Under the pieces are notes generated by a model. It had not been told where the DNA came from. It made no database searches and saw only the letters and a program-made list of their open reading frames with translations. Positions 3,736-22,501 of a stretch of 64,000 bases of DNA are shown in pieces. Location of the stretch: the IMG/VR virus record IMGVR_UViG_3300031260_000038, positions 15,099 to 79,098 of that record; one strand, given 5' to 3'. The stretch comes from a virus (taxonomy: Duplodnaviria > Caudoviricetes). Both the position numbers and the translations under genes were made by a program. Position 1 is the stretch's first letter. Each line of letters starts with the position of its first letter.

Positions 3736-4026
3736 ATGGATATTGGAGAAGCAGTAACAGCTATGAGATGTGGCTATAAAATAGCAAGAAAGGGTTGGAA
3801 TAGCAAAGACCAATGGATTGCTCTAAATCCCAGTTCTGTAATAACTGTTAGTGAAGGCAGACCTTTGGCAAAAAATATAGCAGTAGGAACAAAAGTAAAA
3901 TTTCAAGAATATGTTATTATGAAAACTGTTCAGAACACTATTGTTCCGTGGCTATGCAGTCAAACAGACTTATTAGCAAATGATTGGATTGTGGTAGGAG
4001 AAGGAGCGGAAGAAATTGACAATTGA
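3736..4026 (+). CDS. DUF2829 / Tad2-like protein
   Basis: GYKIARKGWN and PWLCSQTDLLANDW motifs typical of DUF2829. Confidence 0.7.
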   Translation: MDIGEAVTAMRCGYKIARKGWNSKDQWIALNPSSVITVSEGRPLAKNIAVGTKVKFQEYVIMKTVQNTIVPWLCSQTDLLANDWIVVGEGAEEIDN

Positions 4027-4805
4027 ACAATGGCTAGGGGAAAATAACAAAATAGGAATTGATATTTGGAAACAAAAATATCAACAAAACAATGAAAGTT
4101 TTGAAGAGTGGCTTGACAGGATAAGTAATGGAAATAAAGAAATTAGACAGCTAATAAAAGACAAAAAATTTCTTTTTGGTGGCAGAATATTGTCTAATCG
4201 TGGTATGCAAAATCAAGGTAAAAAGGTAACTTATAGCAACTGTTTCTTTTTAGGAGAAGTTGAAGATACTCTTGAAGATATTTTTGATATAGCAGGGAAA
4301 ATGGCAAGAACATATTCTATGGGTGGTGGCTGTGGAATAAATTTAGGAAAATTAAGACCAAATGGTAGTGAAGTTAATAATAATGCCAAATATTCTACTG
4401 GTGTAATACCATTTATGGATATGTATAGTAAAATTACTGAAACTATTGGTCAATCAAATCGTCGGGGTGCACTTATGATTACATTGCCTGTAGACCACCC
4501 TGATATAGAAGAATTTATATCTTGCAAGGCAAATTTGGATAAAGTTTTAAAAGCAAATATTTCAGTTTTTGTAACTGATGAATTTATGAAAGCAGTAGAA
4601 AATGACGAAAATTTTATTTTAAAATTCTTGGTAGAGCAAACAGGAGAAAAAATAGAAAAAACTATTAGAGCAAAAGAATTGTTTTATGAAATTGCTTATC
4701 AAGCTTGGGATAATGCAGAACCAGGCATTCTTTATAAAGGAGCAATAGATAAATATAATTTAATGAGTAATGTGCCAGAATATAAAATTGGTGGCACTAA
4801 TCCGT
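4016..4805 (+). CDS. nrdJ: Class II (B12-dependent) ribonucleotide reductase, exon 1
   Basis: FLFGGRILSN, TYSNCF, GGGCG, NRRGALM motifs; ends ...GGTNP plus T of the Cys codon. Confidence 0.88.
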
Positions 4806-5058
4806 AAACTAAAATGCGGATGTAAAAGTGAGTGAATTGCTGGAAACCCCTTAGAGCCTTAGATACCAAAGTGTAAAAATTCTAAGGATTGGGCAATCAG
4901 CAGCCAAGCTATCAGAGATAGAAGGTTCAACGACTACTGGAGTTTAGCGATAAACTTAATAACCAGATACAGCGCTCACCTACCGACCATCAATGATTGG
5001 GAGATGATATAGTCTAGACCACAACGAGAAATCGGCTTGGGAAACCAAGTGTGGTAGG
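4806..5058 (+). ncRNA. Group I intron (IA-like, 253 nt, no homing endonuclease)
   Basis: P1 ATCCGT/GCGGAT with U-G at the splice site; P aattgctgg, Q aatcagcag, R gttcaacgacta, S gatatagtct; ends in G; splicing restores NPCGEIPL in frame. Confidence 0.92.
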
Positions 5059-6566
5059 GTGGTGAAATTCCGCTTACAAAAAACTCAGCCTGTTTGCTTG
5101 GAAGTATAAATTTATCTGAATATGTAAAAAACCCATTTACAAAAGATGCTTATTTTGATTTTGCAACACTTAAAAAAGATGTTTTTTATTATGTAAAAGG
5201 GCTTAATGAATGTTTACAAGAAAACATTGAATTTATGCCACTAAAAGAACAAGAAGAAGCGGTAAGAAAATATAGAGCAATAGGTCTTGGCTATTTTGGC
5301 TCTGGTGACATGTTCATAAAAATGGGGCTAAGATACGGCTCAAAAGAGTCTATAGACCTTGTTGATATGATTGGTTATGAAGTAGCGAAAGAAGCTGTTA
5401 TATCAAGTAGTAAACTTGTTAATGAGTTCCCTATGCCTGATATTATTAAAGATAATGCTGAAAAAATATTTTCAAGTAAGTTTTATAAGGCTCATTTTAA
5501 TGAAGGAGAAAAGTATTTACCTATAAACACTTCACTATTAACAAGTGCTCCTACAGGAACATTATCCACAATGTTTAATGTTAGTGGTGGAATAGAGCCA
5601 ATATTTTCATTAAAAATGTGGCGTAAAACAGAATCACTAAATAATGGCAAAGAAACAAGCTATGAAATAGATATACCTGTTATAGAAGGATGGAAAATGG
5701 CTAATAACACAACAGTTTTGCCAGAATGGATTGAAAGGTCTACAGCACTTACTCTTAATATAGAAGAACGAATAAACATTCAATCTGCATGGCAAAAACA
5801 TATTGATAATGCCATATCTTCAACTGTAAACCTTGCTGAAGAAACAAGCGTTGAAGACGTTATGAATTTATATATGTCGGCATGGAAACAAGGTCTTAAA
5901 GGAATAACAGTATTTAGAACAGGGTGTAAACGTGGCGCTATATTAACAACTAAAAAAAAGGAAAGCACAATAACAGAAGAAGATGTTTTTGAAGAAGCAT
6001 TGGCATGGGGAGATACTCTTGACACAAGTGATGATTTAATTGGTCTTAAAAGAAAAATAATGTCTGGTTGTGGTTCGCTACATATTTTAGCATATTTTGA
6101 TTATGAAGGAAGACTTATGGAAATATTTTTAGATAAAGGTTCTACAGGTGGCTGTTTTAGTTATAGCAATGGATTGTCGAGAATGATAAGTATTGCCGCT
6201 AGGTCTGGTGTAGCTTTCGATAAAATAATTGACCAATTAAATTCTACATTACCTTGCCCTAGCTATGTAGGAAGAACTATAGCAAAAGGAGATACAAGTA
6301 GGGGTAAAAACTGTCCTAATGCTATCGCAAATGCTTTAATAGAAATGAAGCAAGAAGTGAATACTATACTTATGCTTGATGAAGGCGGTGTCAAAGAAGA
6401 GATAAAAAATGTAAAAAATAAAGATGATTTGCCACTGTTGACAGAAGACGAAATATTAGATGCTAATATGTGTCCTATTTGTTACAAACAAGGACATGAA
6501 GAAAAACTTAACGCTAATTCTGGTTGCTTTTCATGTTTGAAATGTGGCTATAGTAAATGTGGATAA
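5059..6566 (+). CDS. nrdJ: Class II ribonucleotide reductase, exon 2 (spliced product 765 aa)
   Basis: CGEIPL..ACLLGSINL, RAIGLG, SAPTGTLS, KGITVFR; TSCPD-like domain and C-terminal zinc ribbon. Confidence 0.88.
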
Positions 6567-7297: not shown

Positions 7298-8134
7298 ATG
7301 CACGTAGGATATAAAGAATTTGTTCTTAACAATGATGACTTGGCAAGGTTTTATCAGGAATTTGTAGATTTAGGTCTTAAATATAACGAATATTTAGTTT
7401 TAGCAGATGAAGAAGGCAAGGTTCTTGATGTTAAAAAATTTAAGGGAGACCATTATGACAATATTTCAAAACATTCTCTTAAAACAGCTTTCTTTGATGA
7501 AATAAAGCCTAAAGATGTATATCAAAGAATGGCAATAGATAGCCTTTTCAATGACCAATTTACAGCCATAACAGGTAGTGCGGGGTCTGGTAAGTCACTA
7601 TTCTCTCTGGCTTATCTTATGAGACAAATAGAAACAGGAAAGCTTGATAAGATAGTTATTATGTTTAATCCTGTAAAGACAGCGGGAACAAAAGATATGG
7701 GTTTTTATCAGGGTTCATTTGAAGAAAAAGCACTACAGCAGTCTATAGGTAATATGCTTATATCTAAATTTGGTGACAAGAGTTTTCTTGAGCTATATCT
7801 TGCACAGGGGAAAATAAGGCTTGTATCTATGGCTGATGGCAGGGGCATGGAAATAGGCGATGGACAGGCACTGTATATAACAGAAGCACAGAACACTACA
7901 GCAGAAGTTATGGGTCTATGTCTATCACGTGTGTCTGATAAAGTAAAAGTAGTTATAGAAGGTGATTATTGTACACAGGTAGACGATAAGTGTTATACAG
8001 GGTCTAAGAATGGTCTACATGCCGCCATAGAGCTGTTTGCAGGAGAAGATATGTTTTCATGTGTTCAGTTTAAGAACGTGTACAGAAGCCGTATAGCCGA
8101 CATTGCGAGCAAATTACTAAGGAGTGATTCATGA
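7298..8134 (+). CDS. phoH: PhoH-family ATPase
   Basis: Walker A GSAGSGKS; GRG...ITEAQN; EGDYCTQVD; YRSRIA. Confidence 0.85.
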   Translation: MHVGYKEFVLNNDDLARFYQEFVDLGLKYNEYLVLADEEGKVLDVKKFKGDHYDNISKHSLKTAFFDEIKPKDVYQRMAIDSLFNDQFTAITGSAGSGKSLFSLAYLMRQIETGKLDKIVIMFNPVKTAGTKDMGFYQGSFEEKALQQSIGNMLISKFGDKSFLELYLAQGKIRLVSMADGRGMEIGDGQALYITEAQNTTAEVMGLCLSRVSDKVKVVIEGDYCTQVDDKCYTGSKNGLHAAIELFAGEDMFSCVQFKNVYRSRIADIASKLLRSDS

Positions 8135-8285: not shown

Positions 8286-9767
8286 ATGAACACGAAATTA
8301 TTTTATACAAACAGTAAAAAAGAGGTAAACACTTTGTCAAATTTTATTCTAACTTTAAAGTTAAATGCTGAGAAATATCAACAAGACATACTGGATAAAC
8401 GACTAGATATAAGCAGAACGATTTATAATAGTTGTTTGGGCGAATTATTTAAAAGATATAACACCATGAGACAATCTAAGGAATATCAAAAAACACTTAA
8501 AATGACAGCAGGAAAAGAAAGAAATAAAAGGTTTAATGAATTAAATAAAAAATATGGATTGACAGAGTATTCACTTCACGAATTTGTTAAGCCTGTACAA
8601 CATCATTTTAAAAACAACATAGACAGTCACACGGCACAAAAAATCGCAACAAGATGTTTTAACGCTTTTCAGAAACTAATGTTTTATCAATCTAAAAAAG
8701 TATGTTTTAAGCGGCATGGAGAAATGAACAGTGTTGAAGGAAAATCCAATAAGTCTGGTATAAGGTTTAAAGACAATAAACTAATATGGAACGGATTAAA
8801 AATAGACGTAATAATTAAAAATAACGATAAATACACACAAATGGCACTAGGAAATAACATTAAATATTGCAGAATCGTTAGAAAACTAATTCGTGGAAAA
8901 CATAAATATTATGTTCAGCTAATATTAGATGGAGTGCCACCAATGAAAATTAACAGACACACTGGCGAAATTAAAAACGGCATAGGCAATGGAAAAGTTG
9001 GTATTGATATTGGAACAAAAACCGTGGCATATGCTAGTAAATACGAAGTCAAGCTGTTAGAACTAGCACCAGAGATAAACAACATAGAAAAAGAAAAACG
9101 CATACTTCAAAGAAAGTTAGATAGACAGCGTAGAGCCAATAATCCTAATAATTACAACGAAAATGGTACTGTTAGGGTTGGCGGTAAATCAGCAAGGTTA
9201 AAATGGACAAAATCTAAAAAATATATTAAAACACAAAATAAATTAAGAGAAATCCAACGCAAGCAAGCCGATATAAGAAAACAATCACACAACAAGTTAG
9301 CCAACCATATTGTTTCATTGGGTAATGAAGTATACGTTGAAACTATGGATTATAAAGAGCTTCAATCTAGGGGTAGAAAAACAAATATTAATAAGAAAAG
9401 GTTTGGCAAATCATTAGCTAACAAAGCACCAAGTATGTTTTTAACTATATTGGACAATAAGTTGAAATGGCACAATAAACGATTGTTAAAAATAAACACC
9501 ATAAAGATTAAAGCAAGTCAATATAACCATGTGAAAGATGAATATATTAAAAAAGACTTGTCTGATAGGTGGAATGATTTTGGTAGTTTCAAAATTCAAA
9601 GAGATTTATATAGTAGTTTTATAATAATGTGCACTAAAGATAACCTAAAAGAAACAGATAAAAAGCTGTGTATCAAAGAATTTGAAAATTTTAAAATGCT
9701 ACACGATATCGAGATTAAAAGAATAAAAAACAGTAAAAGTAAAACAATATCTAGTATGGGGATATAA
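8286..9767 (+). CDS. tnpB: Long TnpB variant lacking the zinc finger
   Basis: RuvC D (GIDIG), E (VETM), D (QRDLYS); no CxxC pairs. Confidence 0.8.
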   Translation: MNTKLFYTNSKKEVNTLSNFILTLKLNAEKYQQDILDKRLDISRTIYNSCLGELFKRYNTMRQSKEYQKTLKMTAGKERNKRFNELNKKYGLTEYSLHEFVKPVQHHFKNNIDSHTAQKIATRCFNAFQKLMFYQSKKVCFKRHGEMNSVEGKSNKSGIRFKDNKLIWNGLKIDVIIKNNDKYTQMALGNNIKYCRIVRKLIRGKHKYYVQLILDGVPPMKINRHTGEIKNGIGNGKVGIDIGTKTVAYASKYEVKLLELAPEINNIEKEKRILQRKLDRQRRANNPNNYNENGTVRVGGKSARLKWTKSKKYIKTQNKLREIQRKQADIRKQSHNKLANHIVSLGNEVYVETMDYKELQSRGRKTNINKKRFGKSLANKAPSMFLTILDNKLKWHNKRLLKINTIKIKASQYNHVKDEYIKKDLSDRWNDFGSFKIQRDLYSSFIIMCTKDNLKETDKKLCIKEFENFKMLHDIEIKRIKNSKSKTISSMGI

Positions 9768-10820: not shown

Positions 10821-10862
10821 AAAAAAATTGGGAGAACAGTTTAATTACTGTTCTCCCTTTTG
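10821..10862. terminator. Bidirectional rho-independent terminator
   Basis: 11-bp stem gggagaacagt/actgttctccc with A-tract before and T-tract after, where the two transcription units converge. Confidence 0.85.
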
Positions 10863-10866
10863 TTGT

Positions 10867-11013
10867 TTATATTGTAGGTATTATTTCTTCAAGATAGCCA
10901 CGAATGGTTATAGCCACGGCTACGTCTCCACCTACAGCTTCTGCATAGGCATCAAATGTAGTTCCTTCTGGAAACACAAGTGGCAGTTCTAATGGAATAT
11001 CTACTAATTGGTC
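10867..11013 (-). pseudogene. Orphan 48-codon C-terminal gene fragment
   Basis: DQLVDIPLELPLVFPEGTTFDAYAEAVGGDVAVAITIRGYLEEIIPTI-stop; preceded in frame by TAA, no start codon at its 5' end. Confidence 0.55.
10996..11010 (-). repeat. att-like direct repeat (partner 15434-15448)
   Basis: caattagtagatatt vs caattggcggatatt, 12/15, same frame (QLVDI / QLADI). Confidence 0.45.
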
Positions 11014-11030
11014 TTATAAAATCACCCTTC

Positions 11031-12011
11031 TCACGATATGTGATATTTAAAATGAGCCTCTTTTGCTCTGTGAGTTGAACTTGATATATATACTCTAGTT
11101 GTATCTGCTGACCTATGTCCTAGGGCATCTTGTATATCTGAAAGCTCCATGCCAGCTTCGTGTGATAGCGTTGCAAATGTGTGTCTTAATACGTGCGGTG
11201 TTAGTTTTTTAGAAATATTTGTTTTAATACTTATGTTTTCCAAGATTTTTTGTATAGCCCTGTTAGACAAATTGCCATGTGGTTTTTTAAGAGAAACAAA
11301 AAGATGCTCTGAGTCTACATCACGCTGACTGAGGTATGTTTGCAAATAATACAAACATTTTTGTGACAAAAAGGTTATTCTTTCTTTGTCGCCTTTTCCT
11401 ATAACGGTTAGCGTTCCTTGGTCTAGGTTCAGACTAGACAATTTAGCGCCCGCTATTTCAGACAGTCTAGCACCAGTTGAATACATTACTTCTATTAGCG
11501 CCCTGTCTCTTATGTTTTCACAAGCATTTCTAATTTTTTCTAAATCTATTATATTTAATGCTTTTGGAAGTCTGACAGGCTCTTTAATTCTTGAAAATCC
11601 AACCCATATGTTTTCTTTAACGTAGCCTTTGGTCAGCGCCCAGCCGTAGAATGTTCTAAGCACAGTGACGGTGTTGTTCTTAGAGGAATTTTTAATAGAT
11701 AGCTGTCTAATGTATTCCATTGCGTCATTGGTTGATATTTCAGAAATATTGCTAAAAGAACTAAGAAATTTATTGATTAATATTTTTCTATCTTTTACTG
11801 TTAGTGTTGAATAGCCCGCATCTAACATATGTTGACAATACCCCTGAATGATGTCTTCTTTATTAGCTTCCACTATTTCTGAAAACACTTCTTTAACACT
11901 ATATTTTTGCAATAATCTTTGAGCCACCATTCTTAGCAAGTTGTGGTCTGCCGCCGTGTCTAACATTCTAACTGATTCTACCAATTCGTTTATTAGTTTT
12001 TCTTTGGACAT
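11031..12011 (-). CDS. Tyrosine recombinase 1 (XerC/D-like)
   Basis: STGARLSE, GKGDKER, HVLRH, GHRSADTTRVY: catalytic R-K-H-R-H-Y intact. Confidence 0.92.
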   Translation of the reverse strand: MSKEKLINELVESVRMLDTAADHNLLRMVAQRLLQKYSVKEVFSEIVEANKEDIIQGYCQHMLDAGYSTLTVKDRKILINKFLSSFSNISEISTNDAMEYIRQLSIKNSSKNNTVTVLRTFYGWALTKGYVKENIWVGFSRIKEPVRLPKALNIIDLEKIRNACENIRDRALIEVMYSTGARLSEIAGAKLSSLNLDQGTLTVIGKGDKERITFLSQKCLYYLQTYLSQRDVDSEHLFVSLKKPHGNLSNRAIQKILENISIKTNISKKLTPHVLRHTFATLSHEAGMELSDIQDALGHRSADTTRVYISSSTHRAKEAHFKYHIS

Positions 12012-12035
12012 AATAGCACCATCCTTTCAGATGCT

Positions 12036-12064
12036 ATTATATCACAAAGATTTTGTTTTGTCAA
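12036..12064 (-). promoter_or_regulatory. SigA-type promoter of recombinase 1
   Basis: TTGACA-17-TATAAT with extended -10; overlaps a 9-bp inverted repeat. Confidence 0.85.
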
Positions 12065-12085
12065 GTGCTATTTCGCAATATGTGG

Positions 12086-12205
12086 CTATTGTGTAATAAT
12101 TTCAACTTTTTCGCTTTCGGTTATTCTTCCGATTTCCACGAGGTTATTTAGATAAGCTTCGTCTATTTTTCCCATTTGGAACTGTAATTTCAAAAACCTT
12201 ATCAT
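12086..12205 (-). CDS. XkdX-like small protein (39 aa, not in ORF track)
   Basis: MIRFLKLQFQMGKIDEAYLNNLVEIGRITESEKVEIITQ; TAATG coupling to the upstream gene. Confidence 0.6.
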   Translation of the reverse strand: MIRFLKLQFQMGKIDEAYLNNLVEIGRITESEKVEIITQ

Positions 12206-12474
12206 TAAAATCCACCCCCTAAAACATCCACCATCAGCATTTCCAAGGCTTCAAGGCGTTCTTCTGCCGTCGGTTCTTTTTGCCAGTATTTATCAAAATT
12301 TTCTTCTAATTCTGACAACGTAGCGGTTGTCTTAAAAGCCAGTTCATCGTATTCATAAAATGTCTGACCTTCTTCATTCTTGTATTCACGTTCGTTTTTC
12401 CGTAAATACACATCAGCATACTTTCCGATTGGGAAATAAGATATTTTAGGTTGTTTGGTAGTGTATTCTGCCAT
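12205..12474 (-). CDS. XkdW-like tail-fibre-associated protein
   Basis: ATG after GGAGG; C-terminal EPTAEERLEALE motif; directly upstream of the XkdX-like gene. Confidence 0.55.
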   Translation of the reverse strand: MAEYTTKQPKISYFPIGKYADVYLRKNEREYKNEEGQTFYEYDELAFKTTATLSELEENFDKYWQKEPTAEERLEALEMLMVDVLGGGF

Positions 12475-13618
12475 TGTTTTCCTCCTTTTGGTATTGACTG
12501 ATATAATTTTTACAAATATTAACAGCTTCAACTATTTTAAGTTTTCTTCTAATAAACCACGAGTTTGTGTGTTTATACCAACTATAAGCAGATATAATTT
12601 TCCGTGCGATATTTATATTAATTTTTCTTTTCCAGAATTTAACAAAAACACGTCTTGTTTTTAAAAATATTTTAGTTCTAATCGTTGTAGAGTTCTTTCT
12701 AAAAACAAATCCCATCATGTCTATCGGCTCATTGTTTGAAAGCTTGTTCGTTTTCCAGAAATCCTTAATATCTAACAGCAATTCTTCCTTAAGGAATTTC
12801 TTTAACATTAGAAAGGCTCTTTTTACAAATTTCTTGTTTTTACCAGTCAAGATAAAGTCGTCCATATAGAATAAAACGTGTGTTATCAACCTCTTGCGAA
12901 CAACCCCTCTTTTAGTTCTTCTGACAGTGAATAATTTTTCGCTTGCAAAATGATAGGCATAAGACAAATAATAATTACACAAGTATTGAGATAAATATGA
13001 ACCAATTGAAAGACCGCCGTTAAACATTGATAATAATAATTTGAACAACCATATAAGCGTGTTGTTTTTAATATCTCTTTCCAAAAAATATATTAATTTG
13101 TCTTGTGGTATTGATGGGAAACACTTTACGACATCTCCTTTTATAAAATATTTTACTTCATTTCTATCAATCCACCTGCGTATAAATCTTTTGCCATAAC
13201 ATTGTCCTTTATTGGGTAAAGATGCGCATTGAAATACTCCGATTTTTGCCATTAACATCTCTTTAGCACCCTCTATTGCGATATAATCACATATTTGGTG
13301 AAGTGGCGACTGAACCCCTATAGTTCTTTCTTTTTTGCACATATAATCGTACTTGGTGAAATATTGTATAGGTCTTAATTTCAGCGTCTTGTTTCTGATT
13401 TTGCCTGATAAATAATTAGCAATATTTAACACAATGCAATGTATTCTCGTGCGGTCGTTGTTCACAAAACCTGTTATCTCTAAATAACTATAATTTGAAA
13501 ATTTGCAAAACAATCTTCGCACATCTTTTCTGTTCCATTTTCTTTTTAAATATTTATATATGCAACTAACAATAAAATCCATGTTGCATATATCTATGTT
13601 TTTACAGTATCTTTTCAT
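12446..13618 (-). CDS. DGR reverse transcriptase RT1
   Basis: FIKGDVVKCFPSI, GLSIGSYLSQ, FYMDD; no group II intron maturase domain; adjacent TR/VR pair. Confidence 0.93.
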   Translation of the reverse strand: MKRYCKNIDICNMDFIVSCIYKYLKRKWNRKDVRRLFCKFSNYSYLEITGFVNNDRTRIHCIVLNIANYLSGKIRNKTLKLRPIQYFTKYDYMCKKERTIGVQSPLHQICDYIAIEGAKEMLMAKIGVFQCASLPNKGQCYGKRFIRRWIDRNEVKYFIKGDVVKCFPSIPQDKLIYFLERDIKNNTLIWLFKLLLSMFNGGLSIGSYLSQYLCNYYLSYAYHFASEKLFTVRRTKRGVVRKRLITHVLFYMDDFILTGKNKKFVKRAFLMLKKFLKEELLLDIKDFWKTNKLSNNEPIDMMGFVFRKNSTTIRTKIFLKTRRVFVKFWKRKININIARKIISAYSWYKHTNSWFIRRKLKIVEAVNICKNYISQYQKEENNGRIHYQTT

Positions 13619-13749
13619 TATGACCTTTCTAATAATGTCTCAATGGATTTCGCTAAACTACTAACCACTGCTGTAACGATTAATTTTACTTAGTTAAGTG
13701 AGCCGTGCCCGCTTAAAGCGGGGAGACTTGGCACATTGTTTTTTTATTA

Positions 13750-13860
13750 GATTGCCGGGGCAAGATATTCCAGTTCGAGTTCGTCAACGAGTTGTTGCCA
13801 TTCAAGTAACGTAATCCACACTGAGCGTCATTGTTCAGATTACCGAAAGACTGCCATACC
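13750..13860 (-). repeat. DGR1 template repeat TR1
   Basis: 111 bp; 24 differences from VR1, all at TR adenines (17 A>G, 6 A>T, 1 A>C). Confidence 0.96.
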
Positions 13861-13884
13861 TTGCTGTGCCAAGAATCCTCTATA

Positions 13885-13914
13885 AGGGGTTGTCACCCCT
13901 CAATGCTTCGCATT
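13885..13914 (-). promoter_or_regulatory. Candidate DGR1 target-recognition hairpins
   Basis: AGGGGT-GACA-ACCCCT (GRNA loop) and AATGC-GAA-GCATT just downstream of the target stop. Confidence 0.65.
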
Positions 13915-13915
13915 T

Positions 13916-15655
13916 TCACCCCAAACTACGCCTGCGGCTTCGCCCAGTTGCTGAAAGCCGGGGCAAGACATACCAGCCCGAGCCCGCCAACGAGTCGCTG
14001 CCAACCAAGCAACGCAATCCACACCGAGCGCCAACGCTCAGAAGACCGAAAGACCGCCACACCCTTGTACCAGTAACCGGAGAATTTGTATAGATACCAT
14101 CGCCAAATCCAGTAGAAGAACCCGCTAATGACTCAACAGGCACAATTACAGATGGATTATTTTCGTCGATTGCTATTTTGCTAATATACTGCCAAGCGTT
14201 ATTTGTTTGTGTCAATTGATAACCAACTAAATCATAATTAGAAGTTATTGAAGTTGCGTAATTATGACAATCGTAACAAGCGTAAACTTCAATTTTGTAC
14301 GTTCCGGTATTGTCGTTGTTGATTATCAAGTTTTGAATGACTTCATAACCACCAACCATCACTTCTATGCCGTTGATGATAAAGGGTTCTTTGCCTGATA
14401 AATTGTTATAAGGCGAACCATCTTGACCGAGCACGTCATCACAGCCGCCGCTGTTCCAAGGCATTGTTGATATTTTAGTTGACAAGGTGGTGTCGAAAAC
14501 AGCAGAATCCACATAGACAGCGCTGTTGCCATCGCCTAAATCTTCAATAGATGTTATTTTAACTCTATTTGCCAAGTCGTGAACGCTTGCGTTTGCTCTA
14601 TCTGTCGTTGTAGCGTTGCCAACCGAAACAGTCGAACCAACAAGCAAGTAAGCGCCTTCTGCATTTGACACAACAACACGATTAACCCCGGTTTCCGCAA
14701 CCCTATTGGAATACTGGGCATAGTAAGCCTGACAACCTTTCATCACATCGTCTGATATTGTTGTTGCGTATTTAAGCCACATCATCAACTGCACGTAAAA
14801 ATCATCGTGAGAAGTTTTGCCGCTATACTGAGCGCCTTTGGCGGCAAACGCTGTAATTTGTCCATTGTGGCTCATATTCACATATTCAGGATAAACACCG
14901 CTGATGGACGCAAGATTGTTACTTTCGTGTACGTTTCTTCCTGCGACATACTTAGCGAACAGCAAATAAGGTCTGATTGTTCCGTCGGGCTTTTCTGCCG
15001 GTTGTAGAATTTTGTAACCCTCGTATGGAAAATCAGTATACGAAACTTCCCAATAAGTGTCCGTAAATGTTACTTTAAAATACCCCGCCATCGCCATGAT
15101 GTAGACATCGCCGTTCGTGCCGTCACGCCTGAAATTAGAATCGCCTTTTATTGCTGTAACGTGGTAATCGTCGTTTGCATCTACATGAGCGTTGACTTCA
15201 ATCGACCGAAACAGACCGATGTTTTCGTAGTCGTTTCTGCCTTTGATGGTGTTTGTTGACGGTTCACAGACAAGACCCATGCTATCATCAAGTTTTGTTC
15301 CGAGTGGTGACTGTGACACAGAGAACAGATTGAACCTTACAGTGTAGATTTTCCCTGTGCGTTGTGCATTCCAGAATCCACCTAATCCGATATACTCAGT
15401 ACCATTGAAATAAACATCGTTCACGTTTGACGCAATATCCGCCAATTGTGTATCTAGTTCATCTATTGCATCTTGTGTATTAGTAGCCGTAAGTCCACTT
15501 GTAGTATTATTATATTCTAAATCTATTGCTGACGCTTCTGCATAGCTACCTGTGCCATCACCTTTTAGAACGCCGTTTACGTCTCTCATTGTTTGCAACA
15601 TCTCGCCATATTTAGTAGATGCTATCGGCTGACCATTATACATTAAAACAGCCAT
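13916..15655 (-). CDS. DGR1 target: tail fibre / receptor-binding protein with C-terminal CLec/Mtd-like variable domain
   Basis: VR1 at the C-terminus; short N-terminal stalk motif TATNTQDAIDEL. Confidence 0.85.
   Translation of the reverse strand: MAVLMYNGQPIASTKYGEMLQTMRDVNGVLKGDGTGSYAEASAIDLEYNNTTSGLTATNTQDAIDELDTQLADIASNVNDVYFNGTEYIGLGGFWNAQRTGKIYTVRFNLFSVSQSPLGTKLDDSMGLVCEPSTNTIKGRNDYENIGLFRSIEVNAHVDANDDYHVTAIKGDSNFRRDGTNGDVYIMAMAGYFKVTFTDTYWEVSYTDFPYEGYKILQPAEKPDGTIRPYLLFAKYVAGRNVHESNNLASISGVYPEYVNMSHNGQITAFAAKGAQYSGKTSHDDFYVQLMMWLKYATTISDDVMKGCQAYYAQYSNRVAETGVNRVVVSNAEGAYLLVGSTVSVGNATTTDRANASVHDLANRVKITSIEDLGDGNSAVYVDSAVFDTTLSTKISTMPWNSGGCDDVLGQDGSPYNNLSGKEPFIINGIEVMVGGYEVIQNLIINNDNTGTYKIEVYACYDCHNYATSITSNYDLVGYQLTQTNNAWQYISKIAIDENNPSVIVPVESLAGSSTGFGDGIYTNSPVTGTRVWRSFGLLSVGARCGLRCLVGSDSLAGSGWYVLPRLSATGRSRRRSLG
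13953..14063 (-). repeat. DGR1 variable repeat VR1
   Basis: Encodes VWRSFGLLSVGARCGLRCLVGSDSLAGSGWYVLPRLS vs TR1 VWQSFGNLNNDAQCGLRYLNGNNSLTNSNWNILPRQS. Confidence 0.96.
15434..15448 (-). repeat. att-like direct repeat inside target 1 (codons Q70-I74)
   Basis: 12/15 identity to 10996-11010; at the end of the stalk. Confidence 0.45.
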
Positions 15656-15679
15656 TTAATCACTCTCCTTAAATTATAC

Positions 15680-15708
15680 TTGACAAATCCCTTATTTTGT
15701 GCTATACT
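15680..15708 (+). promoter_or_regulatory. SigA-type promoter of recombinase 2
   Basis: TTGACA-17-TATACT with extended -10 TG; back-to-back with the target-1 RBS. Confidence 0.8.
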
Positions 15709-15729
15709 AATTAAAAAAGGAGATTTGTT

Positions 15730-16590
15730 ATGATTGAAAATTTTTGTACTTACCTTTATTCTGTAAAAAACAGGTCACATAGAACGATAACTGAATATCG
15801 TTATGACCTATTGCGTTTTGAAAAATTTATTGGAAAAGACCTAAAAGATGTAGATAGCGGCGACATTATTTCTTATCTAAAAAAGATGTCAGACGAAAAG
15901 AAGTCTAGTGCCTGTAGAGCTAGAAAACTAAGCTCTATTAAATCGTTCTACCGCTATCTACAAATGTTTGGTCATGTTACGGTCAGCCCCGCCGTAAACA
16001 TTGGTACGCCCAAAATTGAAAAGAGATTGCCTAAATATTTATCCCTAGTCGAAGCTGTTAGGCTTGTTGATGTAGCCAAGCAAAACAAAGTTGAGTTTTA
16101 CAGACTAAGAGATACCTGTATGATACAAATGTTTCTTAACTGTGGTTTGCGTCTATCTGAACTTGTTGAACTGCAACTGACAAGAATTAGCGGTGATAAA
16201 ATAGAAGTTATTGGAAAAGGCAATAAACAAAGATTTATTTATATGAACAATGCTTGTCAAAAAGCTCTTTCAGAGTGGCTTAATTACCGACAAGAATATT
16301 CCTGTGACTATGTTTTTAGCACGAAAAGAGATAACAAAATATCCAAAACAGCTGTTCAGTCAGTTATAAAGAATTATTTCAGAAAAGCTGGTCTTGACAC
16401 AACTAAATACCATGTTCACAGCCTACGACATACGTCTGCCACACTAATGTATCAGTATGGCAAAACAGACGTGCGTGTGCTACAACAATTTTTAGGACAC
16501 TCTACGATAGAATCAACCATGATATATACTCACGTTAATGACAACCAATTAAGGTCTGCTGTTATTAACAATCCACTGGCTAACCTATAG
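15730..16590 (+). CDS. Tyrosine recombinase 2 (XerC-like), antisense to the surrounding operon
   Basis: NCGLRLSE, GKGNKQR, HSLRH, GHSTIESTMIY: catalytic residues intact. Confidence 0.92.
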   Translation: MIENFCTYLYSVKNRSHRTITEYRYDLLRFEKFIGKDLKDVDSGDIISYLKKMSDEKKSSACRARKLSSIKSFYRYLQMFGHVTVSPAVNIGTPKIEKRLPKYLSLVEAVRLVDVAKQNKVEFYRLRDTCMIQMFLNCGLRLSELVELQLTRISGDKIEVIGKGNKQRFIYMNNACQKALSEWLNYRQEYSCDYVFSTKRDNKISKTAVQSVIKNYFRKAGLDTTKYHVHSLRHTSATLMYQYGKTDVRVLQQFLGHSTIESTMIYTHVNDNQLRSAVINNPLANL

Positions 16591-16594
16591 GCGA

Positions 16595-16610
16595 AATCTT
16601 AATTTGGTTC
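16595..16610 (+). repeat. 16-bp inverted repeat, left copy
   Basis: aatcttaatttggttc, 4 bp after the recombinase-2 stop; exact reverse complement of 19661-19676. Confidence 0.8.
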
Positions 16611-16710
16611 AATCTGAGTAATTAATTCCCGTGATAGACTTGTATTCTTCTTTTGTAATACGCTTCATTTTGACTAAAAATTTATACAACCTTATTTCAG
16701 CATCGCTCAC
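16609..16710 (-). CDS. XkdX-like small protein (33 aa, not in ORF track)
   Basis: MSDAEIRLYKFLVKMKRITKEEYKSITGINYSD; RITKEEYxxITG motif; GTGA coupling. Confidence 0.7.
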   Translation of the reverse strand: MSDAEIRLYKFLVKMKRITKEEYKSITGINYSD

Positions 16711-17015
16711 TTAGCACCCCCTCCTGACAACAAAACTATTTCTGTTAAATCTGCCAACAATTGGTTTAACTGTTCATTCTCAATTTCTTCTTGCGTTTTT
16801 TGCCTCAATACTATCCATGATTTTCCGTCACGAATAATATTGGACAGCAGTTTCATGTCTTGATATGTTTCTATTTTTTCTCCGTCTGATATTTCTACCA
16901 AGGACAAGTTATTTTCAAAAATTGAATCTTCAATAACTTGTCTGGCAATATAATTGTTTCCGTTTAATTCAAGGTTTTCTATAATTGTTCCGTCTGCCAA
17001 TTTTATGTGGTACAT
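16707..17015 (-). CDS. XkdW-like tail-fibre-associated protein
   Basis: C-terminal KTQEEIENEQLNQLLADL motif; upstream of the XkdX-like gene. Confidence 0.55.
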   Translation of the reverse strand: MYHIKLADGTIIENLELNGNNYIARQVIEDSIFENNLSLVEISDGEKIETYQDMKLLSNIIRDGKSWIVLRQKTQEEIENEQLNQLLADLTEIVLLSGGGAK

Positions 17016-18190
17016 TGATTGACCCCCTTTAATTCGTTATATAAATTATTCATATTTGTTCGTTGCTGTCTGCTCATTAGTTTGTAGTGATTGTTGAACC
17101 ACGATGTAAACAAACACTCAAAATCTTTTTTGTCTAAAACAGGAGCAAGTTTTTTCATTTTTCTCCGCATTGCTGTTAGTCTTTTGGGATTTATTTTCTT
17201 TATAATTCGACCTGTTTCTGTTAGCGAATATTGTATTTGCAAAAATCTCCAACAACTTGATAACTTGCAAATTCTTGTCTTTTTAGTGTTTATTGTGATT
17301 CCTATTTTTGTAGATTCCTCGACTATTTCTTTTAGCAGTGATTCTAAATAATTTTTATCTTGGTGAATTACATAACTGTCGTCCATGTACCTGCCGTATA
17401 GCTTTACGCCCTTAACAATTTTTATATAGTTGTCTAAGTCTTTAGGATAAGCTATGCCAGCAACCTGAGCTACTTGGTCGCCTATATTAAGATGCTTGTC
17501 CATTATTTTGCCGCCAACACATAACGCTTTATCTATATTTTGATATTCTAAAGAGTTAAATAATTCTTGCATGCATACGGAATATTGTTCGTCACTCATA
17601 TAGGAAACATCTACCCGAGACTTTTCAATAGCTTTTTCAAGAACCCATAAAGCGTCATTTTTAATTCCTATTTCTTCAAATATTTTTAGAAAATAATCGT
17701 GTCTTATATTGTCAAAGTATTTGCTGAAATCTATTAACAATATATATCCATCGTTGCTACCGTGCTTAGAGTAAAATCGTCTTAAATGTCTTTCAAACCT
17801 ATCCCTTGTAAAGCCAATACCCTTACCTTCTAAACTTGCTCCGTTATCATGTATAAGGTATTTTTTTATTACAGGAATCAACTCTTCTGTGCATAGACAA
17901 CTTTTAACCACCCTGTCTCTTATGTGCTCTCCTGTTATTAATCTTGTTTTCCCTCTTTCTTTTAATATAAATTCTGAACCATCAGACAATTCAAACGTTC
18001 GATTCTTTATAGATTTATAAGTTTCTGATATTTCTGGCAAAAACCTCATTTCATATTTTTGAACAGAGGCTTTCCAATCACTATTCTTCTTGGTCTTTTT
18101 ATAAGCTTTATAAAGATTATTAGAATTAAATGTTTCATGCTCACAGCTACAATTCTCGTAAGAAGTAGCGTCATGTTTAGTATTTACCAT
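17003..18190 (-). CDS. DGR reverse transcriptase RT2
   Basis: IRDRVV, LLIDFSKYFDNIRH, LNIGDQVAQ, YGRYMDD; follows avd and TR. Confidence 0.94.
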   Translation of the reverse strand: MVNTKHDATSYENCSCEHETFNSNNLYKAYKKTKKNSDWKASVQKYEMRFLPEISETYKSIKNRTFELSDGSEFILKERGKTRLITGEHIRDRVVKSCLCTEELIPVIKKYLIHDNGASLEGKGIGFTRDRFERHLRRFYSKHGSNDGYILLIDFSKYFDNIRHDYFLKIFEEIGIKNDALWVLEKAIEKSRVDVSYMSDEQYSVCMQELFNSLEYQNIDKALCVGGKIMDKHLNIGDQVAQVAGIAYPKDLDNYIKIVKGVKLYGRYMDDSYVIHQDKNYLESLLKEIVEESTKIGITINTKKTRICKLSSCWRFLQIQYSLTETGRIIKKINPKRLTAMRRKMKKLAPVLDKKDFECLFTSWFNNHYKLMSRQQRTNMNNLYNELKGVNQCTT

Positions 18191-18251
18191 ACGGAAGGAT
18201 ATTTTCTCCTTTCTTTAATGCAAATCGGTCAAATGCCTTTTTAATTGCAAA

Positions 18252-18342
18252 ATTGAAATCGGGACGCGCGCCAAGAGAGTAAGAAGCGTTGTTGTTGTTG
18301 GCATTACCGTTGTTGTTGACATTGGCAAAGTTCGTCGATGAT
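18252..18342 (-). repeat. DGR2 template repeat TR2
   Basis: 91 bp, AAC-rich; 16 adenine and 4 non-adenine differences from VR2. Confidence 0.94.
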
Positions 18343-18362
18343 ATTAGAAAATACCCCATGGA

Positions 18363-18896
18363 TTAGTTGTTAAAATTTTTAGCAAACTTGTTGTCAGACT
18401 TTCTCCATCCTTTTATCAAAGATATCTCTTTTTCTATTCCATCTGAAAAACGTAAGTACTTATCAATATCAACTGGTAGCGTTTCAATTGCATATTGAAG
18501 CTCTTGTAGTAATCTGTTGCATTGACCTATCGCCCTATCCTGATGTATTCGCCTTTCAATCAATTCTTCTTTATAGTGAGGATAAATGCTGTTGGCTACA
18601 AAAATGTGTTCCTGAACACTTCTAAGACAGTCCATAACTGAATCTCTCTGGTCTATGATAAACCATTCTTCAAACGAGTTTGTCTTTTCCTTCCTATCAT
18701 CGTAATGCTTCTTTTCCGCATCGTTTAATTCATGATATGGTCGTTTCCCAAATGTTTTTGCTAAATATTCTTCTGACTTCTTACTACTGTAGCCAAAATC
18801 TCTCAAAAGCAAGTCTGTTATCTCTTTTCTGACTTTATAAAAATGATGAAACACCTCAAATTGAGATTCTTTTCTTTTTCGTTTTACGACTGACAC
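18363..18896 (-). CDS. avd: DGR accessory variability determinant (Avd-like four-helix bundle)
   Basis: MSVVKRKRKES start, basic and helical, C-terminal LIKGWRKSD; sits between target and TR. Confidence 0.85.
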   Translation of the reverse strand: MSVVKRKRKESQFEVFHHFYKVRKEITDLLLRDFGYSSKKSEEYLAKTFGKRPYHELNDAEKKHYDDRKEKTNSFEEWFIIDQRDSVMDCLRSVQEHIFVANSIYPHYKEELIERRIHQDRAIGQCNRLLQELQYAIETLPVDIDKYLRFSDGIEKEISLIKGWRKSDNKFAKNFNN

Positions 18897-18933
18897 TTAA
18901 TTTCTCCTTTTGTAAAATGTTTTAATTATCTAC

Positions 18934-18948
18934 GCCCCATAAAGGGGC
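18934..18948 (-). promoter_or_regulatory. Candidate DGR2 target-recognition hairpin
   Basis: GCCCC-TTTAT-GGGGC 5 bp after the target-2 stop. Confidence 0.6.
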
Positions 18949-18953
18949 TTGAT

Positions 18954-20492
18954 TTAAGAAATACAGAAAGCGGGACGCACGCCATAAGAGAGAGAAGCGC
19001 CGTAGTTGCCGGCAAGACCGTCGTTGGTGACATAGGCAAAGGTCGCCGATGATGAAACATCTCTCAACCAATAGGATTGCCTCGTATTCACGGATTGTGG
19101 GTTTGATGCAAATAGTGGGAATTGCGATTTATCCACATATACATTATTCGCCAAGCTAGTCCCTTGCGTTGCGTTGCCATAATGCTTAGTGCCATATACA
19201 TTAGCTTCAGTCATCAGTTCTACCGTTGAGTCATACCACGATCCACCACTTGTATACCCACTGGTTACCGCATTATGTAAATAGTTTCTATGACTTACCA
19301 CATGACCGCTAAAGGCGTTATTTATGGTGGTTTTTGCACTATTTAACCCAGATACATACATTTTGCTGCCAACATAAGCACCTGTTGTAATGTTAGTGTC
19401 ATTCATCACATGATTATACAGTGCTGTGTCTGGCACTATTACAGCGTGATTAGCGGTAAGCGCTGTATCGCCTGTATTGTGGTAATAATTGAAACAAGCT
19501 ATTCTGTAATTAATTCCACCGATAGTCCAATAGTCGCCAACATATAGGTCGTCAAATGTGCCGCTTGAAATGGCATTGTATTGCTCTGTTGTGACAGCCG
19601 AACCTAAATATTTACCCCTGAATATAGAGTTGTGAAACCCTGCGCCACTTGAAATTGGTAGAACCAAATTAAGATTAGTGTCTAATTTATCAATTGAACT
19701 GGTAACAGTTTCACCATCTGTTACATAATTATTTTCTGTATAAAGCCTGTCACCAACATTGTCATTTGTGTCTTTTAATTCCATATCTAACTTGTCTATG
19801 CTTGCAGTTAAAGCTTCACCATCTGTTACATAATTTTCTTCAGTATAAAGCTGAGAACCTTTATCTTCACCTATTTCTTGTAAAGCATCTTCAACAGTGT
19901 TGCCGCTATAATATCCGCCGCCATCTGTTATACTTATTGTGTTAGCGTTGTTTATTAAAAGGTCTCCTTCTACATCTGTTATAATATATACTTGGTCTGA
20001 TTCAATTTTACCCTGTGCATCAAGAGCATCATATTCAGCCTGAGTTAAATATATGGCTGTAATTTTATACCAACTGCTATCTGGTGGCCCTGCTTCACCG
20101 CCACGCATTACATCAAATTTAATTTCACCGCTACTTATTCTTTCGTCTGCATCAGTAATTGTTATTTTTATTGTTACTTTACCTATAAAAGCAAACACAG
20201 CAGGATTTATTTGTAAAACTATTTCTCCATCAACTATATTTACATCATTACCAAAACTTTGGGTATATACAGGTTCACATTGATTCTCAATATAATAATG
20301 AACATCAATTGTTTCTGTTGTAAGTGTTAATTTAGCGCCATTTTTTTGTACTTCAATATAAAAAATATTGCCATATAAATCACCACGACTAAAAAAAGGA
20401 ACAACATATTTATATGTTTGATTATTATATGGAGCTATAATATGTTTACCTGTATATAAATCAAGCCAAACTTTGTATTCTTTTTTAGCCAT
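18954..20492 (-). CDS. DGR2 target: baseplate-anchored tail fibre (BppU-like N-terminus, stalk repeats, CLec-type C-terminus)
   Basis: FSRGD N-terminal motif, LTQAEYDAL motif, 35-aa repeat, C-terminal YWLRD...GVRPAF. Confidence 0.87.
   Translation of the reverse strand: MAKKEYKVWLDLYTGKHIIAPYNNQTYKYVVPFFSRGDLYGNIFYIEVQKNGAKLTLTTETIDVHYYIENQCEPVYTQSFGNDVNIVDGEIVLQINPAVFAFIGKVTIKITITDADERISSGEIKFDVMRGGEAGPPDSSWYKITAIYLTQAEYDALDAQGKIESDQVYIITDVEGDLLINNANTISITDGGGYYSGNTVEDALQEIGEDKGSQLYTEENYVTDGEALTASIDKLDMELKDTNDNVGDRLYTENNYVTDGETVTSSIDKLDTNLNLVLPISSGAGFHNSIFRGKYLGSAVTTEQYNAISSGTFDDLYVGDYWTIGGINYRIACFNYYHNTGDTALTANHAVIVPDTALYNHVMNDTNITTGAYVGSKMYVSGLNSAKTTINNAFSGHVVSHRNYLHNAVTSGYTSGGSWYDSTVELMTEANVYGTKHYGNATQGTSLANNVYVDKSQFPLFASNPQSVNTRQSYWLRDVSSSATFAYVTNDGLAGNYGASLSYGVRPAFCIS
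18963..19053 (-). repeat. DGR2 variable repeat VR2
   Basis: Colinear with TR2 at a constant offset of 711 bp. Confidence 0.94.
19661..19676 (+). repeat. 16-bp inverted repeat, right copy (codons N273-L278 of target 2)
   Basis: gaaccaaattaagatt; at the stalk / C-terminal domain boundary. Confidence 0.8.
19710..19835 (-). repeat. Stalk repeat in target 2
   Basis: 21-bp exact direct repeat (19710-19730, 19815-19835), period 105 bp; LYTExNYVTDGExxTxSIDKLD twice. Confidence 0.85.
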
Positions 20493-20882: not shown

Positions 20883-21275
20883 TTACTTTATTTCCTTTAC
20901 TGCTTTTTCTATCTGTGCAACTATAAGTGCGTTTAATGCACCTGTAGCTGTTTCAATAACATTCATGCCACTTTCAGACATAATTTCTTTTGTCCTTTCA
21001 AAAGATTTATCAAAAGCAATTTTAGCATCTTCTTTTGTAAAAGTATTGTCAGATTTTAGTGCCGCAACAAATGTTTGTTGTGTTTCGGCTACAGCGGTCA
21101 TAACCGCCTGTTCAAGCTCTGATTTTGCTTCTTTAAAAGCATCTTGTATTGTTTTGTTCTTTATTTGTTCTATTTTAGCATCTGCTAAACTGGTCAGGGT
21201 TTTTACACCCCAAGCCAGTAGCGGAACTATAACAGATGTTATTATTATCATAATAATTTCATTTATATCTAACAT
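20883..21275 (-). CDS. Holin (LL-H-like)
   Basis: Single N-terminal transmembrane helix with charged tail; adjacent to the endolysin. Confidence 0.7.
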   Translation of the reverse strand: MLDINEIIMIIITSVIVPLLAWGVKTLTSLADAKIEQIKNKTIQDAFKEAKSELEQAVMTAVAETQQTFVAALKSDNTFTKEDAKIAFDKSFERTKEIMSESGMNVIETATGALNALIVAQIEKAVKEIK

Positions 21276-21304: not shown

Positions 21305-22501
21305 TTATTTATCAAATTTAATAAGAGTAGTTATTGTTTTAGGGCCTGTAATACCATCAACTTTGAGACCATTCCGATATTGGAACGACATTACAACTTT
21401 TTCTGTAAGCGGCCCATAAGAACCATCAACACCATATGGCGAAAGATTATACCCCGCTCTAATCAATACTGTCTGAATCCATTTAACACCATTGCCACGA
21501 CTGCCACGTTTAAAAACAGAACTGGTAGAAGGTCTTGTATATGGATTTTTCCACGGCTTAACAGGGTTTTTAGCCATAGCCAAAGATGCAGGACCAAATA
21601 TACCATCAATTACCAGTTTATAATCCTTTTGGAAAGATTTTACCGCTGATTCTGTGGCAGGACCAAATGAACCATCGTCTACAAGGGCGTAGCCGAGCTG
21701 TGATAGCTTTTGCTGTACCCACTTAACATCATTACCCTTGTCTCCACGCCTAAGCGCCTTAGTAGGCTCTACGGGCGATTTAGATGGTGTTACAGGCTGT
21801 TGCGAGCCAGAAGACGTTTTAAATTTTATAATTTGACCGACATTAATTTCTTCTGGATTTTTTATCCCATTAAACTCTGCAAGCTCCTTATATTTAGAAC
21901 CATCACCGAGATATTTTTCAGCTATAGCCCAAAGACTATCTCCCGCTTTAACAACATAGCTGTCAGTATCAATAATTTCTGTTTCTTTTGTATAATCAAT
22001 ATAAGGACATTCACCCCAATTTTTCCAACCACGCTCTTTAAGCTTTGTTTTTACAACGCCATAATCAACGCCACGTGCTTCAATAACTTCACCGTTACCA
22101 ATATAAACGCCTACATGACCCTTTGAAAAAACAAGAATGCCTTCTATATCTGGCATAGTATCTATATTGCCATTAACTTTTGTACGCCCATACATACCGT
22201 CAGCACTTACATCTGTATCTCTATCATATTTAGGGTTTTTATCATCACCTTGCCACCAAAGAAAGCCTTTAATAAGACCAATACAATCAGCACCACGCTT
22301 ACCTACAGCATCACCATCTCCATCAAGTCTACCACGATATGTTTTTGCTTTATATGCCGCTGTATATTGTTTGGGAAATCTTCCTGCCGCCGACTCAATA
22401 CTTGCCGCTGTTACAATCTGTCCGTAATGTGCGTAAGTATAATTCCATTTTTCTGCTAAAGCCTTTTTTGCAAATGCTACTAATTCTTTGTTTGTTTTCA
22501 T
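21305..22501 (-). CDS. Endolysin: NlpC/P60-like catalytic domain, LysM, two PG-binding domains
   Basis: ADCIGLIK and GHVGVYIG; YVVKAGDSLWAIA (LysM); DGxFGPxT twice. Confidence 0.88.
   Translation of the reverse strand: MKTNKELVAFAKKALAEKWNYTYAHYGQIVTAASIESAAGRFPKQYTAAYKAKTYRGRLDGDGDAVGKRGADCIGLIKGFLWWQGDDKNPKYDRDTDVSADGMYGRTKVNGNIDTMPDIEGILVFSKGHVGVYIGNGEVIEARGVDYGVVKTKLKERGWKNWGECPYIDYTKETEIIDTDSYVVKAGDSLWAIAEKYLGDGSKYKELAEFNGIKNPEEINVGQIIKFKTSSGSQQPVTPSKSPVEPTKALRRGDKGNDVKWVQQKLSQLGYALVDDGSFGPATESAVKSFQKDYKLVIDGIFGPASLAMAKNPVKPWKNPYTRPSTSSVFKRGSRGNGVKWIQTVLIRAGYNLSPYGVDGSYGPLTEKVVMSFQYRNGLKVDGITGPKTITTLIKFDK

Follow-up and report, generated by a model that had tools for sequence, protein, structure and literature searches.

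Organization of the locus

We analysed a 64,000-nt window from an uncultured Caudoviricetes phage (bases 15099-79098 of the 79,098-nt IMG/VR record IMGVR_UViG_3300031260_000038). Positions 11031-20492 of this window hold two tandem modules, A and B. Each contains a diversity-generating retroelement (DGR), with a target gene, a template repeat (TR), a variable repeat (VR) and a reverse transcriptase (RT), followed by two small open reading frames (ORFs) and a gene for a Xer-like tyrosine recombinase (Rec2 in module A, Rec1 in module B). All genes of the modules lie on the minus strand, except Rec1, which lies on the plus strand. The original prediction, made from the letters of the window, had described the same layout occurring twice with unrelated parts, and our gene calls and family scans reproduced it. 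The RTs, the targets and the small ORFs of the two modules showed no significant pairwise similarity, and Rec1 and Rec2 share 24% identity, so the tandem is indeed not a recent duplication. Comparison with relatives (designated L001, L017 and so on) showed that each DGR lies in a discrete head cassette, the edges of which coincide with repeated sites beside the recombinase genes. It also showed that relatives have exchanged cassettes exactly at these sites, with interchangeable cargo.

The two diversity-generating retroelements

The target of DGR A is a 579-aa tail protein (13916-15655, minus strand, as are all features of both DGRs; phrog_17147, E 1e-126; phrog_5302, 'tail protein'), which contains VR_A (13957-14063). 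The 107-nt TR_A (13754-13860) is followed by RT_A (12446-13618; phrog_1423, E 2e-53; RVT_1), the translation of which carries the IGSYLSQ and YMDD motifs. DGR A has no avd gene. An 89-aa ORF (12205-12474) is tied to the RT_A family; it had no match in Pfam or PHROG. Its homologues follow RT_A in L001 and L002 and are found between target and RT in L011, L012, L014, and L016. This family, which takes the usual avd position in these distant RT_A relatives and is unrelated to Avd, may be an accessory factor of an avd-less DGR lineage. The second small ORF of the module encodes 39 aa (12086-12205).

The target of DGR B is a 512-aa receptor-binding protein (18954-20492) with a BppU_N-like N-terminus and a DUF6273 C-terminus, and it contains VR_B (18966-19053). 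Directly after its stop codon lies a GC-rich hairpin (18934-18948), which is possibly the target-recognition hairpin of the DGR. An Avd-like accessory protein follows (18363-18896; phrog_3206, 'Avd protein of DGR', E 2e-6) and is 100% identical in 11 further contigs. The 88-nt TR_B (18255-18342) precedes RT_B (17003-18190; phrog_1423, E 1e-53; RVT_1), which has YMDD and the motif IGDQVAQ, with Ser replaced by Ala. The next ORF, of 102 aa (16707-17015), is tied to the RT_B family; it is kept after RT_B in L023-L036 and gave no family match in the Pfam and PHROG scans. The module ends with a 33-aa ORF (16609-16710). The small ORFs had been labelled XkdW-like and XkdX-like. The first label was not supported, since the 89-aa and 102-aa ORFs match neither Pfam XkdW nor each other (hhalign probability 0.7%). 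The second was correct for the 33-aa ORF (PF09693, E 3e-6, 27.6 bits, above the cut-off); the 39-aa ORF, with no Pfam match at E ≤ 5, resembles XkdX by position only.

Both systems combine a DGR-type RT with an adenine-specific TR/VR pair, the VR being located at the 3' end of the target ORF. A search of the whole 79-kb record confirmed that each TR matches solely its own VR, and both DGRs act on tail receptor-binding proteins, as had been proposed. TR_A and VR_A differ at 22 of 107 positions, all 22 at TR adenines. Natural copies of VR_A display 24 variable columns, 22 of which are at TR adenines. For VR_B, four natural alleles gave 25 variable columns (22 at TR adenines). The cassette DNA around the variable VRs is 97-100% identical among copies. 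Judging by this variation, both DGRs are evidently genuine and active in nature.

TR_B and VR_B differ at 18 of 88 positions, 14 of which are TR adenines. The four non-adenine mismatches arise because the TR_B of this genome has itself changed, at three positions that were formerly adenines and at one other base; measured against the TR of relatives, which reads ..TCTAACTCTAATGGCGTG.. at this point, all 18 VR_B differences are at adenines. The changes are located at the 3' end of TR_B (18262-18287), where AAC became TAC, AAT became CTT, and one further base differs from L001, L017, L018, and L022. L019-L021 have a third version of TR_B. It seems that the template itself was mutagenised or converted from a VR. 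VR_B copies also vary in length within the AAC-repeat part (+3 nt in L020 and L021, -18 nt in L022), which simple adenine substitution does not account for.

Boundaries of cassette B

A perfect 16-nt inverted repeat, AATCTTAATTTGGTTC, marks both ends of cassette B; the longest match obtained in 200 shuffles was 12 nt. The left arm, IR-L (19661-19676, minus strand), is in frame at codons 273-277 of target B (NLNLV) and sits at most 7 residues before the C-terminal head domain. The right arm, IR-R (16595-16610, plus strand), starts 5 nt after the Rec1 stop codon and shares 2 nt with the stop codon of the 33-aa ORF. From arm to arm, the cassette extends over 3,082 bp (19676..16595).

Comparison with L019 and L022 placed the edges of homology at the arms. 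Identity was 60-68% at 19677-19754, reached 100% from 19676, and remained at 99-100% through to 16595. Past 16595, L019 continues with a holin gene (50% identity) and L022 with Rec1 (about 91%). In L022, the cassette is flanked by a fibre N-terminus of the L019 type at one end and by Rec1 at the other. In L017-L021, cassette B is 99-100% identical, with holin and amidase genes directly after it and no recombinase. L199 revealed the same flank with different cargo: identity was 92-94% in the 3' end of Rec1 (an orthologue at 78% identity), 16 of 16 across IR-R, and 30% inside the cassette. In L198, which has a 68% Rec1 orthologue, the site core is kept at 12 of 12 positions within otherwise unrelated intergenic DNA. 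Logan contigs from several runs (L283, L284, and L286) stop at the arms or no more than 16 nt from them, L283 exactly at the outer edge of IR-R. Such breaks fit a sample in which copies of the cassette have different flanks. Among the viral contigs, no new cargo was found next to Rec1 and the site. In metagenome contigs, a 29-mer search yielded nothing and an 18-mer search only single, chance-like matches.

Related sites in other phages

The identical 16-mer was found in L097, where it forms an inverted repeat around a 671-bp segment (L097:5412-6082). This segment holds two opposed alternative fibre C-termini, both starting with NLNLVQ, which is the classical design of an invertible fibre. A search for relatives of this fibre returned L097 alone.

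L024 and L025 represent a second, diverged DGR lineage, the inverted repeat of which differs from that of slot B and occupies equivalent places; it serves as an independent replicate. None of 200 shuffles reached the 14-nt repeat of L025, CTTGCTGCGCATAA (4552-4565 / 7908-7921). The left arm precedes the head domain by 27 nt, and the right arm read inward gives LAAHN*. L024 and L025 are 99.9% identical as far as the outer edge of the right arm, precisely where the homology ends. When 21 lineages of the RT_B family were surveyed for repeats that occur both at the head junction and past the RT, only cassette B and L025 were positive.

A transposon-like cassette B with 16-18-bp terminal inverted repeats, moved by a transposase acting in trans, would likewise explain why the terminal repeats are perfect and why identical copies turn up in unrelated contexts, and the record does contain three TnpB-like genes. 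We consider this highly improbable. The left repeat is in frame and always at the same fibre domain junction, and the 16-mer bounds the unrelated two-head segment in L097. IS200/IS605 elements are not known to use terminal inverted repeats, which also counts against it. The transposon reading was rejected because no target-site duplication was found at the flanks of cassette B.

Boundaries of cassette A

Cassette A is delimited by a direct repeat with 18 of 22 matching positions, a score reached in 1 of 60 shuffles. Its upstream boundary, site A1 (15431-15452, minus strand), is in frame in target A (..DTQLADIA..). Its downstream boundary, site A2 (12074-12095, minus strand), lies a short distance upstream of the Rec2 promoter and shares bases with the stop codon of the 39-aa ORF. 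The sites are 7-8-7 imperfect palindromes with differing spacers, and A1 and A2 are the only occurrences of ACACAAT-N8-ATTGCG in the 79-kb record.

L199 again provided the informative comparison. At A1, identity to this phage was at background up to 15442, 100% at 15443-15452, and 86-89% beyond. At A2, an identity of 91-97% dropped to background within 12074-12095. Between these sites, L199 has a GDSL-esterase head and no DGR. The backbone is common to the two phages: the first 75 residues of the target A N-terminus are 89% identical at the aa level, and the ThyX-like gene, the terminator, Rec2 (97.5% aa identity), and Rec1 are all present. L198 lacks Rec2 and the whole of slot A.

Altogether, five independent homology breaks fell within about 8 nt of a site. 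A site beside the recombinase gene with a copy in the target gene had been noted for both modules, and the homology breaks identify these as real recombination junctions.

Linkage of recombinases and retroelements

The original prediction had interpreted DGR and recombinase as a recurring module. A dedicated six-part unit, inherited and transferred as one, would explain why the same gene order occurs twice with unrelated parts and why Rec1 is kept beside cassette B in L001, L022, L280, and L281. We surveyed 135 loci that hold relatives of RT_A or RT_B, 95 of them viral and 40 genomic. An adjacent Xer-like recombinase was found solely in the lineage of this phage; a few other loci had larger integrases 1-5 kb away. 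The proposed co-transfer of RT and recombinase was not supported either. The DGR cores of L001 and this genome are 95-100% identical, as compared with a nucleotide identity of 69-82% for Rec1 and 59-68% for Rec2, so that the divergence of RT and recombinase is discordant. The six-part unit, which we regard as improbable, is largely refuted by L199, with both recombinases and no DGR A, and by L017-L021, with cassette B and no recombinase.

The linkage is not DGR-specific, because most relatives of the DGRs lack the recombinase and L199 has the recombinases without DGR A. The prediction had itself named a linkage no more frequent near DGR RTs than in DGR-free relatives as the outcome that would speak against it, and Rec2 homologues were indeed found in DGR-free phages. 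These comparisons indicate that the recombinases belong to the fibre slots and not to the DGRs, which are cargo. The interpretation given in the original prediction is supported in part.

The recombinases

Rec1 (15730-16590, plus strand; 286 aa; PF00589, E 2e-34; PF02899, E 1.6e-16) converges on cassette B. Rec2 (11031-12011, minus strand; 326 aa; PF00589, E 1.7e-37) is located at slot A. The catalytic motifs of both are visible; those in the Rec2 translation are RLSE, KGDKER, HVLRHT, and LGH..Y. Each gene has its own promoter. That of Rec1 (15680-15708, plus strand) is near-consensus, TTGACA-17-TATACT with TG (11 of 12), and that of Rec2 (12036-12064, minus strand) has the sigma-70 consensus TTGACA-17-TATAAT with TG (12 of 12). 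They are the two best sigma-70 matches in 11.5 kb, the Rec2 promoter being the best. In L001 and L199, the region of the Rec2 promoter is better kept than the Rec2 gene.

Both proteins consist of a SAM-like core-binding domain and a catalytic domain. Profile scans detected no arm-type domain in either of them, which argues against a lambda-type integrase. Their scores against the NCBIfam Xer models (227 bits for Rec1, 177 bits for Rec2) are under the equivalog cut-off of 335 bits, and they are thus not assigned to XerC/XerD. Rec1 orthologues with 68-79% identity occur in L001, L022, L199, and L198, and the site core is found downstream of the gene in all of them. Rec1 and the site core therefore stay together in four contexts, down to 68% protein identity.

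The recombinases could nonetheless have an ordinary housekeeping role, for example as lysogeny integrase or Xer-type dimer resolvase, and lie by chance at the end of the tail operon. The boundaries would then stem from recombination, either homologous or illegitimate, at a conserved motif of the fibre (IDxLDT..). Several observations are in line with this. Rec2 homologues (31-33% identity) are located at the tail end, between the last tail gene and the holin, in the DGR-free Clostridia phages TPELB_ph1 and phiCp-D. Outside phages, Rec1 has its closest relatives (45% identity) among chromosomal Xer-like genes of Clostridia. The record begins with a third Xer-like gene, and no flipped form was seen in the viral contigs searched. 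Chance adjacency, however, does not account for IR-R and site A2, which are non-coding motifs and yet repeat the in-gene site. Nor does it account for the five homology breaks so close to a site, for the persistence of the site core by Rec1 while the surrounding DNA diverges, or for the identical 16-mer around the invertible two-head segment of L097. We therefore judge the housekeeping explanation to be unlikely.

Three minor features belong here. The third Xer-like gene lies ahead of the window, at genome bases 1-704, where the contig end truncates it, and no matching site was found nearby. Nothing convincing as a site turned up in TPELB_ph1 either, and the chromosomal homologues of Rec1 are not followed by a similar site. 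The Rec1 gene contains a 23-nt inverted repeat with 83% identity (15838-15860 / 15951-15973), which encloses a minus-strand promoter-like site (15892-15865) aimed at target A; the repeat is probably due to chance. An open frame downstream of Rec2 (10867-11016) was considered as a displaced fibre C-terminus. This was not adopted, as the frame has no homologue in any fetched locus.

A proposed slot and cassette model

The phage backbone provides two tandem slots, each with a constant receptor-binding-protein N-terminus that ends in a short in-frame site. The head cassette inserted there comprises the C-terminal receptor-binding part with the VR, Avd where present, the TR, the RT, and the two small ORFs. 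The second copy of the site follows the cassette, beside the gene of the Xer-like tyrosine recombinase with its own consensus promoter. Rec1 and Rec2 are the putative enzymes that catalyse cassette exchange by site-specific recombination. The DGR would thus travel with its own target domain as a plug-in unit. We estimate the probability of this explanation, with Rec1 and Rec2 in this role, at about 0.6.

The arrangement of the sites suggests different options for the two slots. The 16-bp sites of slot B are inverted, and hence Rec1 could also flip the 3,082-bp cassette, as Rin, Gin or Rci would. Flipping would yield a truncated fibre (..NLNLVQSE*), and the Rec1 promoter would then lie upstream of the head, avd, TR, and RT genes. 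The slot A sites are direct and have different spacers, which should make excision in cis unfavourable and still permit exchange with a matching partner genome. Inverted identical sites in slot B and direct sites in slot A would both favour exchange over loss. Host recognition would then change coarsely by swapping or flipping of the head, and finely by adenine mutagenesis. A bolder version holds that DGR head cassettes are mobile units, that Xer-like recombinases exchange them, by site-specific recombination at short in-frame sites, between the receptor-binding-protein genes of unrelated phages, and that the same enzyme flips cassette B. We put this version forward tentatively, at somewhat less than even odds.

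Several observations weigh against the model. The repeats of L017-L021, L024/L025, and L097 occur without a recombinase in fragments that are 21-51% complete, so that Rec1 and Rec2 are candidates for the acting enzymes. The 29-kb fragment of L097 has no recombinase gene; neither a tyrosine nor a serine recombinase was found in the recovered fragments of L097, L109, and L019, and no tyrosine recombinase in those of L018, L020, L021, and L025. None of the approximately 15 contigs carrying cassette B showed a flipped or excised form, and the predicted flipped junctions were absent from the viral collection. Slot B has a single head, and inversion would give only a truncated fibre. For slot A, the site pair of L001 matches at only 15 of 22 positions, as compared with 18 of 22 here; the site is short and the spacers differ. 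Finally, 47 loci with Rec2 homologues showed no enrichment of exact repeats shared with upstream genes, in a test of low power that site A itself would fail.

Relation to known systems

The closest counterparts are the Rin shufflons of Bifidobacterium and Eggerthella prophages, in which a XerD-like invertase lies beside cassettes for the fibre C-terminus (Mavrich et al. 2018, PMC6109161; PMC8778435). Both there and in the present phage, the variable C-terminal region of a receptor-binding-protein gene has next to it a gene for a XerD-like tyrosine recombinase that lacks an arm-binding domain, and short asymmetric sites mark the junction between constant and variable parts. Slot B shares the Xer-like recombinase without an arm domain and the inverted sites, one of them at the constant/variable junction. 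Other Rin features are missing. Two or more cassettes would be expected, whereas cassette B holds a single head, and IR-R read inward gives NLNLVQSE*. Both orientations would be expected, and all contigs show one orientation of cassette B. The sites of slot A are direct instead of inverted. Here, one head and a complete DGR lie between the sites, in place of several silent alternative heads. The evidence consists of exchange between genomes at the sites, inversion being unobserved, and there is a second slot with direct sites. In Eggerthella prophages, Rin and DGR were found in different clades (PMC8778435). A tail-fibre shufflon with a tyrosine invertase has also been described in BV01-like phages (PMC13596623). 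This shufflon and that of R64 (Rci/sfx) resemble the present case in their short directional sites and in the recombinase beside the 3' end of a fibre or pilin gene. Some of their configurations give truncated products, as predicted for the slot B flip. They differ in having multiple cassettes, observed inversions, and no DGR.

The tail-fibre segments Mu G/Gin, P1 C/Cin, and p15B Min depend on serine invertases and always contain at least two opposed heads. None of them is known to enclose a retroelement. Like slot B, they have one inverted repeat in the fibre gene at the constant/variable junction, and the recombinase gene abuts the other. Like cassette B, the segment is common to otherwise unrelated phages (Mu and P1). 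These invertible segments are cited in PMC6109161.

The DGR of Bordetella phage BPP-1 (mtd-avd-TR-brt) and the phage DGRs of the large PMC5758913 survey share with ours the order of a target with a 3' VR, Avd (here in DGR B), TR and RT, as well as adenine-specific differences and a tail receptor-binding protein as the target. The present phage differs in having two unrelated DGRs, DGR A without avd, and cassettes bounded by recombination sites. According to the survey, DGRs transfer horizontally and are retroelements that have lost mobility functions. The searched passages contain neither the word 'recombinase' nor a site-specific mechanism of transfer.

The layout is also reminiscent of engineered systems. 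In recombinase-mediated cassette exchange, inverted or heterospecific lox/FRT sites block excision and permit exchange with a cassette that is flanked alike. Slot B has inverted identical sites, and slot A has direct sites with a differing spacer. Engineered exchange is a laboratory design; we infer its natural counterpart here from the breakpoints alone.

In the papers covered, our full-text literature search found no DGR enclosed by such recombination sites and no case of a shufflon combined with a DGR. Horizontal DGR transfer and fibre shufflons with tyrosine invertases are already known. In the present phage, a whole DGR with its target domain is bounded to the nucleotide by recombination sites. 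The same sites serve non-DGR heads and, in L097, an invertible two-head fibre segment. Cassette exchange at the sites suggests how whole DGRs move between phages. If this is true, DGRs, which are usually regarded as immobile, would gain a defined route of horizontal spread, and coarse and fine switching of host range would be coupled in one locus. Should the recombinases act as proposed, phages would combine modular head exchange with hypermutation in place, which bears on host-range evolution in gut and rumen viromes. For engineering, the head would be portable, self-diversifying, and insertable at a defined site.

Genome context

The record has no terminal repeat, its completeness was estimated at 45% by CheckV, and its GC content is about 32%. 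A minus-strand run of genes extends from about 62000 down to 11000. This operon encodes the portal, virion proteins, a 1694-aa ORF of tape-measure size, and Dit- and Tal-like tail proteins. The two DGR modules form the last part of this late operon, after the lysis genes. The holin (20883-21275) and the NlpC/P60-LysM endolysin (21305-22501) are located upstream of both receptor-binding-protein slots, which is the reverse of the usual order of fibre and then lysis. The slots therefore look as if they had been added to the end of the late operon. Three TnpB/IS605-OrfB-like genes are scattered over the record (1657-2748, 8286-9767, and 53205-54356).

At a bidirectional terminator (10830-10857), the modules meet convergent plus-strand genes of nucleotide metabolism. 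These encode ribonucleotide reductase, dUTPase, PhoH, and a ThyX-like protein. The barrel domain of the ribonucleotide reductase is split over two ORFs (4016-4807 and 5094-6566) about 290 nt apart; an intron, the remnant of an intein or a frameshift could be the reason.

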